Assembly: GCA_944350275.1 (NCBI GenBank)
Contig: CALVOK010000043.1
Location: 24,411 to 88,410 of the forward strand
Direction of reading: 5' to 3'
DNA: 64,000 bases
Source of the DNA: an uncultured Clostridia bacterium
Lineage (GTDB): Bacteria; Bacillota; Clostridia; Christensenellales; UBA1242
Positions within the stretch are counted from its first letter, which is position 1. Each line of letters begins with the position of its first letter. A model generated the notes under the pieces. It did no database searches and was not told the DNA's origin. It saw nothing but the letters and a program-made list of their open reading frames with translations. Positions 3,429-11,337 of this stretch are shown piece by piece. The position numbers and the translations under genes are program-made.

Positions 3429-3440
3429 CTTAAATAAAAT

Positions 3441-3660
3441 GTTGATTTTTGTTGATAATTCTTATTTTTCGTTGATTTTTGTATTTTTTCGTCGGTTTTC
3501 GTTGATAATTTTAGATTTTTGTTTATTTTCGTTGATTTTTGTATTTTTTCGTCGGTTTTTGTTGATAATTTTAGATTTTTGTTTATTTTCGTTGATAATT
3601 TTAGATTTTTGTCGGTTTTCGTTGATTTTCGTTGAATTTTGTCGGTATTTTTTTATTAAT
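3441..3660. repeat. Phased array of about 21 ten-bp T-tract words (gttgattttt, gttgataatt, ttagattttt, gtattttttc, gtcggttttc, gtttattttc), including a 60-bp higher-order unit repeated twice
   Basis: Direct reading. The words stay in exact 10-bp register. 3471-3530 equals 3531-3590 except for one base. The array is T-rich on the + strand and stop-free, which explains the spurious 74-aa track ORF 3439..3663. Confidence 0.9.
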
Positions 3661-4628: not shown

Positions 4629-5417
4629 ATGATGAAAAAAGTCAAAAATTTAAACATTGTTATCACAGGCTCGTCAAGCGGGATTGGTCAGGCACTTCGC
4701 TCCTACTATGAAAGTTGTGGCAACAAAGTGCTTGGAATAAGTTTGAGCGGTGACGACTACAATGCCGACGTCTCAGATAAAGAGGCTCTTGTCAAGGTCT
4801 TTGAGGATATAAAAACAAAAGTGCCGTCAATTGATATCCTGATAAACTGCGCGGGCTTTGGTCTGTCAGGTGCAATCGAACTTATAGATGAAAAACAAAT
4901 TCAAAAGGAATATGAGGTCAACGTGCTTGGTTCGGTCTATCCTATTCAACTCGTCCTGCCTCTTCTCAGCAAAAATGGCAAGATTGTCAATATCAGTTCG
5001 GCTTGTGCCCTCTTCCCTCTGCCCTTCCGTGCATTCTACTGCTCAAGCAAGTCGGCGGTAAGTATGCTTAGCGACTGTTTGCGAATGGAACTAAGTAAGA
5101 CCTCCATCCAGGTCACCGCAATCTGCCCTTGTGATATTAAGACTAACTTCACTAAAAATAGGCAAAAAGATTTTAAAACGAATGAGCGATATGGCGAGGC
5201 TATCAGGCTCTCTGCCGAGCGAATTGACAGTCGCGAAGATAAGAGGATGAGCATTGAAAAAGCCACCAAAATCATGACGAAAATCATAAACAAAAAGCAC
5301 TTCAAACCTCAATATGTTATGGGCATGAGGAATAAATTTCTCTATCAAGTGCAAAAATTTTTCCCAAAGTCACTGGTGCTAAAAGTTATGACAAAACTCT
5401 TCTATGTGGATAGATAA
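4629..5417 (+). CDS. SDR-family NAD(P)-dependent oxidoreductase
   Basis: TGSSSGIG Rossmann motif, NCAG, catalytic YCSSK (YxxxK), 262 aa. The start could be the ATG 3 nt downstream. Confidence 0.8.
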   Translation: MMKKVKNLNIVITGSSSGIGQALRSYYESCGNKVLGISLSGDDYNADVSDKEALVKVFEDIKTKVPSIDILINCAGFGLSGAIELIDEKQIQKEYEVNVLGSVYPIQLVLPLLSKNGKIVNISSACALFPLPFRAFYCSSKSAVSMLSDCLRMELSKTSIQVTAICPCDIKTNFTKNRQKDFKTNERYGEAIRLSAERIDSREDKRMSIEKATKIMTKIINKKHFKPQYVMGMRNKFLYQVQKFFPKSLVLKVMTKLFYVDR

Positions 5418-5446
5418 GTGCGGACAACAAATATAATTTTTAAAGG

Positions 5447-5790
5447 GAACGAGCGAGAACGAGTGAGAACGAGTGAGAACGAGTGAGAACGAGTGAGAAC
5501 GAGTGAGAACGAGTGAGAACGAGTACGAGTGTACGTGTACGAGTGAGTATGTACGAGCGAGTGAACGAGTGCGAACGAGTACGAGTGTACGTGTACGAGT
5601 GAGTATGTACGAGCGAGTGAACGAGTGCGAACGAGTACGAGTGTACGTGTACGAGTGAGTGAACGAGTGCGAACGAGTACGAGTGTACGTGTACGAGTGA
5701 GTATGTACGAGCGAGTGCGAACGAGTGCGAACGAGTACGAGTGTACGTGTACGAGTGAGTATGTACGAGCGAGTGCGAACGAGTGAGTGC
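5447..5790. repeat. Purine-rich satellite: about 7 copies of the 10-bp unit gagtgagaac, then about 5 copies of a roughly 56-bp higher-order unit (gagtacgagtgtacgtgtacgagtgagtatgtacgagcgagtgaacgagtgcgaac)
   Basis: Direct reading. Higher-order unit copies start at 5521, 5577, 5633 (42-bp variant), 5675 and 5733. The reverse strand has no stop codon in any frame, which explains the spurious 142-aa track ORF 5379..5807. Confidence 0.9.
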
Positions 5791-5792
5791 AT

Positions 5793-5885
5793 GGGCTCGA
5801 AAGTCAAATTTTAAATTTCATTTAAAATTTTGTTTTGCAAACTCGTTTGCAAAACTGCTCGCAGGAGCGAGCGACTTTCGAGCCC
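5793..5885. other. Perfect four-way-junction palindromic module: a 13-bp closing stem enclosing three abutting perfect hairpins
   Basis: Closing stem gggctcgaaagtc (5793-5805) pairs with gactttcgagccc (5873-5885). Inner hairpins are 5806-5830 (11 bp), 5832-5855 (gttttgcaaac/gtttgcaaaac) and 5857-5872 (gctcgc agga gcgagc). All pairs are Watson-Crick, with at most 1 unpaired nt between helices. Confidence 0.85.
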
Positions 5886-6115
5886 AACCTCACTTTTATT
5901 TATACAAAACTCTCAAACCCACATCACTTTTATAATTTTCATGTCAACCTCGCTTTTATTTATATATAACTCTCATGTCAACCTCAGTTTTATTTATACA
6001 TAACTTTCATGTCAACCTCGCTTTTATTTATATATAACTCTCATGTCAACCTCACTTTTTATTTATACAACATTCAACCTAATCTCACTTTTATATATGT
6101 TTTTCGAGCCCACCA
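5886..6115. repeat. Tandem 34-bp repeat (caacctcgcttttatttatatataactctcatgt), about 5-6 copies, bracketed by the direct repeat ttcgagccca
   Basis: Near-identical copies at 5945-5978, 5979-6012 and 6013-6046, with degenerate copies on both sides. ttcgagccca occurs at 5878 and again at 6104. Confidence 0.85.
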
Positions 6116-6224
6116 ACTATTTAACCAATCAATCTTCCAATCAATTCTTGCTCTTATTCCACCCCTATTTTGAAAATCTATCAAAAAAGCGAGCAATGAT
6201 GAAAATCAAAGTTCGCTTTTTGTT

Positions 6225-6552
6225 GTCGGTTTTTGTTTATAAACGTCGCAATTTGTTTTAAATCATCGAGTTTTGTATGTTTACGTCGGTTTTTGTTTAT
6301 AAACGTTTGAATTTGTATATTTACGTCGAATTTTGTTGCAAATTGTTGAGATTTTTCGCAAATTGTCGAATTTTAAATATAAAGTGTCAAAATTTGTATA
6401 AAATAGTCGGAATTTGTATCAAATCGTCAAGTTTTTTTCGCAAGTCGCCGAGAATTTGTATAAAATCGTCAAAGTTCTTTGAATATCGTCGTAAATTCTC
6501 ACAAACTGTCGAGAATTTTCGTATACCGTCGAGGTTCGTCGAAAAATGTCTA
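6225..6552. repeat. Phased array of about 17 twenty-bp units (consensus roughly aaacGTCGAAaTTTTGTATa) abutting the groEL stop codon
   Basis: GTCGG/GTCGC/GTCGA/GTTGA/GTCAA cores begin at 6225, 6245, 6265, 6285, 6305, 6325, 6345 and 6365 (exactly 20 bp apart), then at 6386, 6406, 6426, 6444, 6468, 6488, 6508, 6528 and 6548. This accounts for the spurious track ORFs 6277..6573 (+) and 6419..6616 (-). Confidence 0.9.
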
Positions 6553-6569
6553 TATTTCTCTCAGCCTTT

Positions 6570-8482
<1,913 letters not shown>

Positions 8483-9596: not shown

Positions 9597-9640
9597 AATA
9601 AAAGACCTGAGTAAAAATTTAAGCAGTTTTATAAAAAACA

Positions 9641-9761
9641 CCCTTTTCGACGTTACTAGACTTTTCTCGACGTGTTTAGACGTTGGTCGACAGTTATTGA
9701 CGTTTCTTGACTTTGGTCGACGGTTGTTGACAGATTTTGACGTTTTTTGTTTGTTTTTGAT
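9641..9761. repeat. Phased 10-bp array with the T(C/T/A)GAC core (reverse orientation of the GTCRA words)
   Basis: GAC recurs at exactly 10-bp spacing ten times (9649, 9659 ... 9739): cccttttcga|cgttactaga|cttttctcga|cgtgtttaga|cgttggtcga|cagttattga|cgtttcttga|ctttggtcga|cggttgttga|cagattttga|c. It lies between convergent genes. Confidence 0.9.
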
Positions 9762-9800
9762 TGAATTTAAGTTTTTAATGCACATTTTTCCCTCCTTGGT

Positions 9801-11012
9801 TTAAAGTTCTTTAATTATCTCTCCACATTGATAAAATGACTGTTTTGCATCATCTAAGTTTGTGCTTTCTTCAATAGAATTTTGGTTTTCTTCACTAAAA
9901 TTTAAGTTTTCTTCTTTGAAATTTATTTTTTCTTCATTGAAGTTTGATTTTTCTTGAGTCAAATTTGTATTATCTTCTAAATTCGAGGTCTCTTCGCTGG
10001 CAGTGTCTAAGTTAGTTTTGTCTAGGTTTAGGTTATTTTCGACGTCAGAGTGTGAGTTGTCCGCTGAAGTCTCCGCTGTTTTAGAGTTTATGTAGGCATA
10101 GTTTTCTTCTGCGCGGTTAAGAAGAGCACCTAATATGTAAATGTACAAGTCTTTTATCTCGTCATTGTTCATCACCTGCCAAACTATATCTCGCAGGTCC
10201 TGTGCCTCAATGTAGTCAAATTTCTCAAGCAGTTCTATCTCGCTGTAACTTGTAAAGCGGTACTTAAAATCACCCTGCTTTGCTTGAGAAAGTGCTTTTA
10301 CTATGGTTTTAACTACTTCGCTGAAGTACTGCTTGCCTTTTTCGTCGTAACCCCAGTAAGAGTAGTACTGCTGAGTTTTCTTAAGCAGGTTATCTTTCAT
10401 TTCCCTCGCGTCGTGTGTGAGAGAGGATGTATGCGTATGTGCGTGTGCGTGCGTATGTACGTGTGCGGGCGCGGGTGCGGGTGATAGATTATTTATTTTA
10501 TTTTTCGACAGACAAAAATTAATTTCTTTTTCTTCTTCTTTTTCTATTTCTTTATTATTATAGGGATAATTAACTCCAATTATCTGGCAATTATCTTGAA
10601 ATATCTCTTTTTTATCTTCAATTATCTTTTTGTTTTTTTTATTGTCAGTTTTTGCCTTTTCTTCTGTTGCAAGAGTGGTTTCTTCCTCGTGGTCTAATAG
10701 GTCATTTTCTTTCTCGTCAGGGCTAGGATAATAGGGATTTCGCTCCCCTTTTTTGAAGTTTGGATTGCCTTTTTTGTGACCTTTAAGACGCTTGTCCATC
10801 CTTATACTTTTCTCAATGCTAGGCAGAAAACTTGTGATAATTGCCTGCGAAATTTGTGATAGTCCTGTAGGCTCTATCCCGCTTGACATAAAGGATATAA
10901 CCGCTTTGTATGTCTCAAGTTGATACTCCTCTGGCAGTGAATTTATTGTATTTGACCAATTGGTAAAAAACACGAAACACTCTCTTTGATAAACTTTATT
11001 TCTGTCTTTCAT
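9801..11012 (-). CDS. Hypothetical protein with an internal His/Thr/Ala low-complexity tract and a C-terminal N/E-rich repeat tail
   Basis: The start at 11012 (MKDRNKVYQ...) is preferred because the RBS aaggaggg precedes it. The protein contains PAPAPAHVHTHAHAHTHTSS and a tail of the form EEKINFKEENLNFSEENQNS. No recognisable catalytic motif. Confidence 0.6.
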   Translation of the reverse strand: MKDRNKVYQRECFVFFTNWSNTINSLPEEYQLETYKAVISFMSSGIEPTGLSQISQAIITSFLPSIEKSIRMDKRLKGHKKGNPNFKKGERNPYYPSPDEKENDLLDHEEETTLATEEKAKTDNKKNKKIIEDKKEIFQDNCQIIGVNYPYNNKEIEKEEEKEINFCLSKNKINNLSPAPAPAHVHTHAHAHTHTSSLTHDAREMKDNLLKKTQQYYSYWGYDEKGKQYFSEVVKTIVKALSQAKQGDFKYRFTSYSEIELLEKFDYIEAQDLRDIVWQVMNNDEIKDLYIYILGALLNRAEENYAYINSKTAETSADNSHSDVENNLNLDKTNLDTASEETSNLEDNTNLTQEKSNFNEEKINFKEENLNFSEENQNSIEESTNLDDAKQSFYQCGEIIKEL

Positions 11013-11141
11013 TTCTTCCCTCCTTGATTTCTTTTGCTTGGCTATATTATAGTCTAGCAATTTTTAATTTTTCAAGGTTATATGCCACAAATTATTGATT
11101 CTTTTAAAGTTTATTTTTAAGTCCTTTTTTAGCCATAAAAA

Positions 11142-11230
11142 AGATAATTCGAGAGATAATTCGCATTTTTTTGAAGATAATTGCAAGATAATTGGAGATA
11201 ATTGGAGATAAAAAAGATAAATAATTATCT
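11142..11230. promoter_or_regulatory. Iteron-like cluster of AGATAATT motifs upstream of the 9801..11012 gene
   Basis: Perfect AGATAATT at 11142, 11154, 11175, 11186 and 11196. Partial copies at 11206 and 11215, and an inverted copy aattatct at 11223. Spacings are mostly 9-12 bp. Confidence 0.6.
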
Positions 11231-11337
11231 TTTATCTTTTTTCGTGTTTTTTACTTTTCCCAAGATTTATTTTTACATATTTTATTGTTTCCAAATTCCC
11301 TCGTTTTTCCCAGTTTTTGTGTTTCTCTTCAAAATTA

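Follow-up and report, generated by a model that had tools for sequence, protein, structure and literature searches.

A copy-number-variable, helically phased minisatellite with a core resembling the Spo0A box at the 3' end of groEL in an uncultured Clostridia bacterium

Bacterial intergenic loci with a variable number of tandem repeats (VNTR) include the mycobacterial interspersed repetitive unit (MIRU)-VNTR loci of Mycobacterium tuberculosis and the markers of multiple-locus VNTR analysis (MLVA). The plasmid centromeres R1 parC/ParR, pSK41 parC, which has 20-bp (base pair) repeats, and pBtoxis tubC/TubR are arrays bound by small proteins, and datA of Escherichia coli and the DnaA-box clusters of Bacillus subtilis are clusters of sites that titrate a regulator. 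The known tandem binding sites of the master regulator Spo0A, the 0A boxes, are pairs or triplets at promoters. The sequence of the 0A box is TGTCGAA, and the Spo0A dimer uses two boxes placed 3 bp apart; imperfect boxes are also bound, such as TGTtGAA or a box with three mismatches beside a consensus box (PMC2731898). Spo0A makes specific contacts to G2, C4, and G5 of the box (PMC3485338). Here, we describe a tandem array with a similar core, located at positions 6225-6552 of a 64,000-nucleotide stretch, called the window, of contig CALVOK010000043.1 from an uncultured Clostridia bacterium (Christensenellales, UBA1242; assembly GCA_944350275.1). The array lies at the 3' end of groEL, in the interval between this gene and a convergent short-chain dehydrogenase (SDR) gene. 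It is a young, species-specific minisatellite that varies in copy number and keeps its core and its helical phase.

Each unit of the array contains one [C/T]GTCGA[A/G] box, followed 10 bp on by a degenerate TTTGT box or a T-tract. A previous annotation from the letters of the window, here called the sequence-only reading, had counted 17 units, which agrees with the core positions between 6225 and 6538. The cores are GTCG or one of the variants GTTG, GTCA, ATCG, and GTTT. The first eight cores, at 6225, 6245, 6265, 6285, 6305, 6325, 6345, and 6365, follow each other in steps of exactly 20 bp, as also claimed in that reading, and two of the eight are degenerate (ATCG at 6265 and GTTT at 6305). 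The remaining cores are placed at 6386, 6406, 6426, 6444, 6468, 6488, 6508, 6528, and 6538, which gives spacings after 6365 of 21, 20, 20, 18, 24, 20, 20, 20, and 10 bp. The self-identity of the array at a lag of 20 bp was 0.535, compared to 0.296 in shuffled sequences (z=10.1), and it was also high at lags of 10 bp (z=6.2) and 40 bp (z=8.8). Tandem Repeats Finder (TRF) reported periods of 20 and 40 bp. GTCG occurs 11 times in the array, with 0.52 occurrences expected from its frequency in the genome (Poisson P about 1e-11). The real register of the array is 10 bp, in which the strong [C/T]GTCGA[A/G] box alternates with a weak half-unit of the TTTGT type. With units at 10 or 20 bp, the cores are located on one face of the helix, in line with the helical phasing suggested previously. 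Two open reading frames (ORFs) overlap the array (6277..6573 on the plus strand and 6419..6616 on the minus strand) and were considered as coding sequences, but they are not kept between strains. The indels that separate the strains are not multiples of three, and the ORFs are therefore not genes and the array is non-coding. Promoter-like matches were found at the array at a frequency no greater than chance.

To study the variation of the array, further assemblies were located by exact-protein look-ups with GroEL and GroES. Six more public assemblies carry the array, one of which is identical and five of which are from strains with groEL sequences that are 98.3-98.6% identical to the one in the window; three of these five span the whole array. 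In ERZ24773282, the 20-bp array is 100% identical across 330 bp, and the adjoining 34-bp repeat is longer by 128 bp. An assembly artefact can be ruled out given the presence of the array in these six assemblies. The array was retained in independent assemblies, showing that it does not collapse on re-assembly, an outcome that the sequence-only reading had considered, and that it is not a mis-assembly. The four arrays that could be read from end to end, in strains with groEL sequences that are 98.3-100% identical, contain 17 (window), 16, 22, and 19 units, respectively. The distances from the groEL stop codon to a hairpin on the far side of the array are 348 (window), 326, 451, and 387 bp in the same four arrays, and the length of the array differs from that in the window by -22, +103, and +39 bp. 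The whole interval between the SDR gene and groEL is 776, 1152, or 1539 bp long, depending on the strain.

The terminal units are common to the strains, and the middle units have been gained, lost, or replaced. Across the strains, the core spacing stays at 10, 20, or 40 bp, and slips of 1-4 bp are rare. The preserved ends, the turnover in the middle, and the changes in unit number indicate that the array behaves as a minisatellite (VNTR). The proposal that the region is a hotspot for repeat expansion held up, since the near-identical strains have 16-22 units and also differ in the length or copy number of the neighboring satellite and 34-bp repeat (5447-6115). The array was present in every near-identical strain examined, and the copy number is free, with the core and the phase being kept; it thus withstands the refutation criterion that the sequence-only reading had set. 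Growth and shrinkage would occur by whole units via slipped-strand or unequal recombination, so that all boxes would stay on one helix face. Like the bacterial VNTR loci, the array consists of non-coding repeats in head-to-tail orientation, with a unit in the range of 10-100 bp that defines a VNTR, a unit number that varies between strains, stable ends, and a turnover of interior units. It differs from a typical VNTR in having units whose length equals a whole number of helical repeats and a conserved core that resembles a protein-binding site and is common to many otherwise different loci.

The convergent SDR/groEL gene pair is also common elsewhere in the genus, in species whose GroEL is 81-85% identical, and among metagenomic relatives with GroEL identities of up to 92-94%. 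In these genomes, the two genes are about 40-515 bp apart, and the gap contains a plain terminator and sometimes a palindrome that could form a four-way junction. The corresponding interval in the window (5418-6569) is free of genes and 1152 bp long, consistent with the earlier remark that a gene-free repeat interval of about 1.1 kb is unusually long. Among the other species examined, whose GroEL is at most 92-94% identical, none was found to have the array in the SDR/groEL gap, which suggests that it is a novelty at the species level.

The array is not the only one of its kind in the genome. At least nine further arrays have the same core, and seven of ten are located on this contig (C43). 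The family was identified with a matrix built from the 17 units, requiring clusters of at least four matches, in combination with a phase scan. The matrix clusters were confined to C43 and contig C2, and the phase scan added one array on contig C14. The arrays on C43 are placed at 6.4, 16.8, 19.2, 21.2, 27.8, 30.6, and 34.1 kb, of which the last three correspond to the window positions 3437, 6225, and 9641. Genome-wide, the distances from one GTCGA to another peak at 10, 20, 30, and 40 bp. The arrays in the family have a common core and different units (10, 20, 30, or 52 bp), with spacers that are either A-rich or T-rich, and five of them end with the same final unit, CGTCGAAAA. A 560-bp array at C43:16527-17095, located 7.3 kb upstream of the window, is composed of alternating TGTAGATAAA and [A/C]GTCGAGAAA units and separates tsaE and tsaB, two genes that lie side by side in three relatives (G002, G005, and G011). 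On contig C2 (13085-13270), there are three TGTCGAR-N3-TGTCGAR pairs about 52 bp apart, the last of which overlaps a strong TTGACA-N18-TATAAT promoter located before a species-specific ORF of 109 amino acids, followed by mcsA-mcsB-clpC. The relatives lack this whole region and have tex running straight into mcsA, and the boxes upstream of mcsA showed no conservation in the relatives examined.

Many of these features would be expected from a non-functional minisatellite, neutral or selfish, that started from a seed duplicated by slippage or unequal recombination and was spread to nearby gaps by ectopic repair. The core and the phase would then be inherited from the seed and via whole-unit indels, with no selection acting on them and no protein binding specifically. 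The array is species-specific, being found neither in the sister species (GroEL 92-94%) nor in other members of the genus, its unit number is different in each strain that was read, and the adjoining repeats vary as well. The occurrence of seven of ten arrays inside 30 kb of one contig is expected from local copying, the end unit shared by five arrays suggests common descent, and insertion has occurred even within an operon (tsaE/tsaB). Furthermore, the whole genome contains 335 tandem-repeat arrays of 24 kb in total, with a peak in period at 20-21 bp, or two helical turns. However, arrays at separate loci share the core only and have spacers of opposite composition, which is hard to reconcile with recent copying and pasting alone. 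Slips of one base are also rare despite the many homopolymer runs, as illustrated by the array at window position 9641-9761, which has 20 units in strains L042 and L045 and zero phase slips. Taken with the pattern of conservation described below, we regard neutral origin and spread as the main alternative, a realistic explanation if a somewhat doubtful one.

The columns of the repeat unit are not equally conserved. In the window array, conservation is far higher in the GTCG block and the TTT-T columns than in the other columns, which are near random. The later units were aligned by their cores, and the first eight units, with their fixed spacing of 20 bp, gave the same pattern. The spread from column to column exceeded that in 5000 of 5000 simulations of uniform decay, and a block of four columns conserved like the core was obtained in 0.4%; a neutral array that decays uniformly does not yield such a pattern. 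In a set of 41 distinct units from the four strains, the G, T, C, and G of the core are kept at 93, 98, 95, and 80%, respectively. Closely related units differ from one another less often in the core than expected, with 4 differences seen versus 9.6 expected (P about 0.025, for pairs that are not independent). All 32 GTCGA sequences in the arrays of the four strains (5, 6, 12, and 9 per strain) are found within a [T/C]GTCGA[A/G] context. The bases contacted by Spo0A, namely G2, C4, and G5, coincide with the best-kept columns of the array, and this agreement with the contact bases of a key regulator also speaks against a purely neutral origin. Judged by its sequence, [C/T]GTCGA[A/G] is a putative Spo0A box, TGTCGAA, in which position 1 is relaxed, and dimer boxes that are placed 3 bp apart result in a 10-bp register.

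The described 0A boxes at abrB, spo0A, and spoIIG in B. subtilis and the 0A-1' and 0A-3 boxes of phages phi29/Nf have G2, C4, and G5 in common with the array (PDB 1LQ1; PMC2731898, PMC3485338). As in the known tandem 0A boxes, the boxes in the array are oriented head-to-tail with A/T-rich flanks, and a good box may be paired with an imperfect neighbor 3 bp away, in a 10-bp register; a canonical Spo0A effector domain is encoded in the host genome. However, the array contains 16-22 dimer-sized units, as compared to 1-3 at the known sites. It also differs from these in being located at a 3' end, in having mostly a C at position 1, in its variable copy number and restriction to one species, and in being one of at least 10 arrays that make up a dispersed family.

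The full-length Spo0A protein of the host consists of 248 amino acids and is encoded on contig C16 (C16:18830-19138; L001:1483-2229, minus strand), with a perfect 0A box upstream of the spo0A gene itself. Its C-terminal domain aligns over the full length with PDB 1LQ1/1FC3 (E about 1e-36), and the recognition helix is nearly unchanged (SKVERGMRHAIEVAW versus SRVERAIRHAIEVAW). The position of the phospho-acceptor Asp in the receiver structures 1DZ3 and 9PHZ is occupied by a Glu (FLISEVV versus ILLLDII/VLVLDII), and judging from this replacement, the protein may not be under the usual control by phosphorylation. The genome also encodes two proteins of 124-126 amino acids that consist of the Spo0A_C domain only and have no receiver domain (C39:6521-6826 and C40:29-331; L002:1447-1827 and L003:8-382). 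Matches to Spo0A_C were found in all 121 genomes of the genus, with 1-6 matches in each, many of them in ORFs of 125-160 amino acids. No link was seen between the arrays and the number of Spo0A_C paralogs in these 121 genomes, and the region upstream of the C39 copy, an orphan Spo0A_C gene, showed neither a phased array nor a phased operator. The genome encodes SpoIVA and SpoVAC, suggesting that the organism is a likely spore-former.

We tentatively favor the reading that this is a young and expanding array that cooperatively docks Spo0A-family proteins, with a downstream effect that could be that of a decoy, a roadblock, or none, and consider it possible rather than probable. Each 20-bp unit would present a near-consensus box of the Spo0A type followed 10 bp downstream by a degenerate half-box, TGT or a T-tract, and this layout of a good box, 3 bp, and a poor box in head-to-tail orientation would be the one occupied by a Spo0A dimer at known sites. 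Active Spo0A, or one of the receiverless Spo0A_C paralogs, would bind cooperatively in a one-sided row of roughly 16-22 dimers, and the at least 10 arrays would have spread through the intergenic and intra-operon gaps of the species. In that case, the array could be a platform for docking or a decoy, and perhaps also a roadblock at the 3' end of groEL, and its docking capacity would shift with the number of units. The sequence-only reading had suggested, among other roles, a site for protein loading; this is plausible and is made more specific by the match of the core to the Spo0A-contacted bases and by the canonical Spo0A domain, with the binding itself being putative. The nucleoid-organizing role and the transcription or replication barrier suggested in the same reading gained no support. 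A further step, that the arrays act as copy-number-variable decoy or docking sites that tune the sporulation threshold between strains by sequestration of Spo0A-family proteins, appears quite improbable. In this scenario, set in a lineage with a Glu at the phospho-acceptor position of Spo0A and with receiverless Spo0A_C paralogs, the sequestered amount of regulator would follow the gain and loss of 20-bp units.

If such binding occurs, rows of dozens of phased boxes can arise, spread, and be resized within one species, away from promoters, and fast-evolving arrays of sites could shape the occupancy of a master regulator. Tuning by sequestration would amount to a contingency locus that acts on a master regulator via the number of binding sites rather than via a coding repeat, and it would link repeat instability to the sporulation decision in uncultured gut Clostridia with small genomes. 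Even without binding, the locus would represent a well-documented family of strictly helix-phased bacterial minisatellites and a marker for strain typing in this species.

Several observations weigh against the docking of Spo0A-family proteins. Each strain has a single perfect TGTCGAA per array. C outnumbers T at position 1, most cores are CGTCGA[A/G], and most boxes in the array do not have the full consensus. The strong boxes are mostly 20 bp apart rather than 10 bp, with three adjacent 10-bp pairs in the window array, and the half-unit between them could equally be called a T-tract or a box, with its G being kept in 51% of the units. The site is the 3' end of a gene, between the stop codon and the terminator of convergent genes, and not a promoter, and the orientation of the arrays relative to their neighboring genes differs within the family. 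The arrays contain 47 of the 1791 sites in the genome that match the 0A box at six of seven positions, and a pure titration effect would thus be modest. Between strains, the end units that can be aligned show a few differences in approximately 180 bp, which in a rough, untallied comparison is of a similar order to the third codon positions of groEL (4-5%); no extra constraint is therefore visible, although there are too few sites for this purpose, and the neutral explanation gains from the same comparison. The other species examined yielded no array at the groEL, tsaE/tsaB, or mcsA locus, which suggests that the arrays have no conserved function linked to these genes. Sister species have 10-bp arrays with a different, unrelated core, AAACCTAACA, indicating that the lineage builds phased arrays whatever the motif, and this also counts in favor of the neutral explanation. 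Finally, a search for the genus-wide pattern GTCGA-N15-GTCGA-N15-GTCGA gave matches in 4 of 120 other genomes and a control with the reversed pattern also in 4, which makes the search uninformative; the match in G058 is a coding KVEN repeat of an FtsW-like protein.

A pattern scan of the species representatives in GTDB was swamped by single chance matches in GC-rich genomes, and it therefore supports the existence of such arrays elsewhere but not their enrichment. Among the matches listed were long TGTCGA(A/G) arrays with exact phasing in other spore-forming Firmicutes, which speak for the docking reading. They comprise about 28 TGTCGAA units of 10 bp beside a phage terminase gene in a metagenome-assembled genome of Oscillospiraceae with 60% GC, in which the boxes are present and the T-tracts are lacking. 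The matches listed also included 30-37 units of a 20-bp repeat, AGATGTCGAGTCGATTCTCA, at several loci in Pseudogracilibacillus sp. SO30301A (L058:1655-2200, L062, and L065), one of which is located between convergent genes for a P-type ATPase and a YihY-like protein, as well as runs of five boxes in uncultured Clostridia.

The T-tracts could instead be the relevant feature, in that phased tracts would produce a curved, stiff segment that is used or tolerated as a site for nucleoid proteins or as an insulator separating convergent transcription units, with an incidental GTCGA core. There is one T-tract per 10 bp, the T columns are conserved at 80-95%, and the T-rich strand is always the plus strand on this contig, regardless of the direction of the core. 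Three of the arrays are located between convergent genes, like the Pseudogracilibacillus array mentioned above. A wedge model with provisional parameters predicted strong curvature, with an end-to-end ratio over 150 bp of 0.54, compared to 0.68 for the first percentile of the genome, although this sets the lowest value from several windows against single background windows. However, for several of the sister arrays the model gave no unusual curvature (0.73-0.83), the best conserved part is the core with its G and C bases, which is not needed for curvature, and the Oscillospiraceae array has boxes without T-tracts. A purely structural role is thus unlikely.

The boxes could also be operators for another regulator that binds in tandem, such as a CtsR-like heat-shock repressor, DnaA, or a response regulator of the OmpR/PhoB type. 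The CtsR operator is RGTCAAA-N3-RGTCAAA, with a spacing of 7+3 bp, and in some Firmicutes CtsR targets include groESL and clpC. The array resembles this operator in its core and in the 7+3 geometry of its direct repeats, one of the ten arrays flanks groEL, and another overlaps the promoter before mcsA-mcsB-clpC. In some of the sister arrays, GTCGA takes turns with TGTAGATAA or TGTTGATAA, the latter being one mismatch away from the DnaA box. CtsR itself was rejected as a candidate, since no PF05848 match was obtained in this genome, which is 97.7% complete, and since the box in the array has a pyrimidine at position 1 and a G at position 5, unlike RGTCAAA. Neither array-type boxes nor the CIRCE element was seen in the groES promoter region. 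An origin, a terminus, or a DnaA cluster was likewise rejected: there is no TTATCCACA box, with at most one mismatch, in 6225-6552, dnaA is encoded on contig C16, and the GC skew is monotonic over the contig, which places the arrays at neither the origin nor the terminus. We consider it rather improbable that another regulator of this sort is the cognate protein.

Similar to plasmid centromeres and iterons, the array is a run of about ten direct repeats, each 10-20 bp long and helically phased, so that a protein could polymerize on it along one face. However, it is chromosomal, flanked by groEL and the SDR gene, and has no adjoining par or rep gene. An origin from a plasmid or phage was rejected, since BLAST gave no match among 72,556 plasmid and 50,697 phage records and no par or rep gene is adjacent. 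As in clusters of the datA type, there are many sites, here putative ones, for a master regulator outside promoters, which could buffer its free concentration, but the array differs in its 0A-like motif, the higher number of sites, the strict phasing, the variation between strains, and the small share of the candidate sites in the genome. Like the pneumococcal BOX elements (boxA-boxB(n)-boxC), the repetitive extragenic palindromic (REP) sequences, and the bacterial interspersed mosaic elements (BIME), the arrays are lineage-specific, dispersed, and intergenic, with a variable number of internal modules, and the array in the window adjoins a member of the family of four-way-junction palindromes in the genome. 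In contrast to BOX, REP, and BIME, it has neither terminal inverted modules nor the potential for an internal stem-loop, and its unit is a phased box that resembles a binding site.

The features surrounding the array are listed in Table 1. The final core and the end of the array are about 30 and about 17 bp away from the groEL stop codon, respectively. On the other side of the array, the hairpin is identical in strains L042, L044, and L046, and when the groEL-sense strand is folded as RNA, it forms the terminal hairpin. A simple terminator scan made no call at this hairpin; judged by its sequence, it is a probable bidirectional intrinsic terminator of groEL and the SDR gene. The array is placed between the groEL stop codon and this terminator and is thus probably transcribed as the 3' untranslated region (UTR) of groEL.

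Table 1. Positions of the array and of neighboring features in the window
Feature	Position	Strand	Description
Tandem array of approximately 20-bp units	6225..6552	+	17 units; consensus AATCGTCGA(A/G)ATTTGTWTAA
Sister array	3437..3660	+	Higher-order units of 30/60 bp from 10-bp CGTTGATAAT, TTTAGATTTT, TGTCGGTTTT; directly past the tadA stop
Sister array	9641..9761	-	11 units, strictly 10-bp-phased; cores of the [A/C/T]GTC[G/A/T]A type; variable between strains
groEL	6570..8183	-	537 amino acids; stop codon 6570-6572; Pfam Cpn60_TCP1
SDR gene	4629..5417	+	Convergent with groEL; Pfam adh_short
Hairpin	6184..6221		AAAAAGCGAGCAATGAT-GAAA-ATCAAAGTTCGCTTTTT; inverted repeat with a 17-bp stem; A-run on one side, T-run on the other
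Neighboring repeat modules	5447..6115		ACGAGTG-type satellite (5447-5790), four-way palindrome (5793-5885), 34-bp repeat (5886-6115)

Its location raises the possibility of a role at the RNA level, in which a groEL 3' UTR of approximately 350 nucleotides, probably part of the groESL transcript, would bind a protein or affect the stability of the mRNA. However, the fold is weakly better than that of shuffled sequences (z=-2.15) for a stretch that includes the terminator hairpin, there is no match in Rfam at the gathering or E<=1 thresholds, the sister arrays would be transcribed in either sense or not at all, and the number of units is free to change. We find such a role highly unlikely, and a known RNA family or a structured RNA was rejected on the basis of the Rfam searches and the fold score.

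A few additional observations were made on repeats in this genome and in its relatives. The contig of one assembly terminates within the ACGAGTG-type satellite. An array at C43:19125-19395, outside the window, has a higher-order unit of about 63 bp, TTGACGAAAATTGTCGA..., and is read through as an N-terminal extension of about 85 amino acids of an apparent O-methyltransferase ORF, as assigned by eye; this extension is probably a non-coding leader. A dispersed repeat with a period of 64-66 bp (or 90-128 bp) that contains GAGAGCGGAGA...ATCGGACAGTCGTC is located at C43:14800-15260, and the same repeat is found at C18:386-582, C26:44103-44377, C17:12300-12445, and C51:54-183. In the sister species with a GroEL that is 93.7% identical, L172:640-950 contains five GTTATCCACA DnaA boxes followed by an array of approximately 20 units of 10 bp, AAACCTAACA/AAACCCAACA. 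The period of this array is the same as in the GTCGA arrays and its core is different, and the region is syntenic with window positions ~9600-11300.

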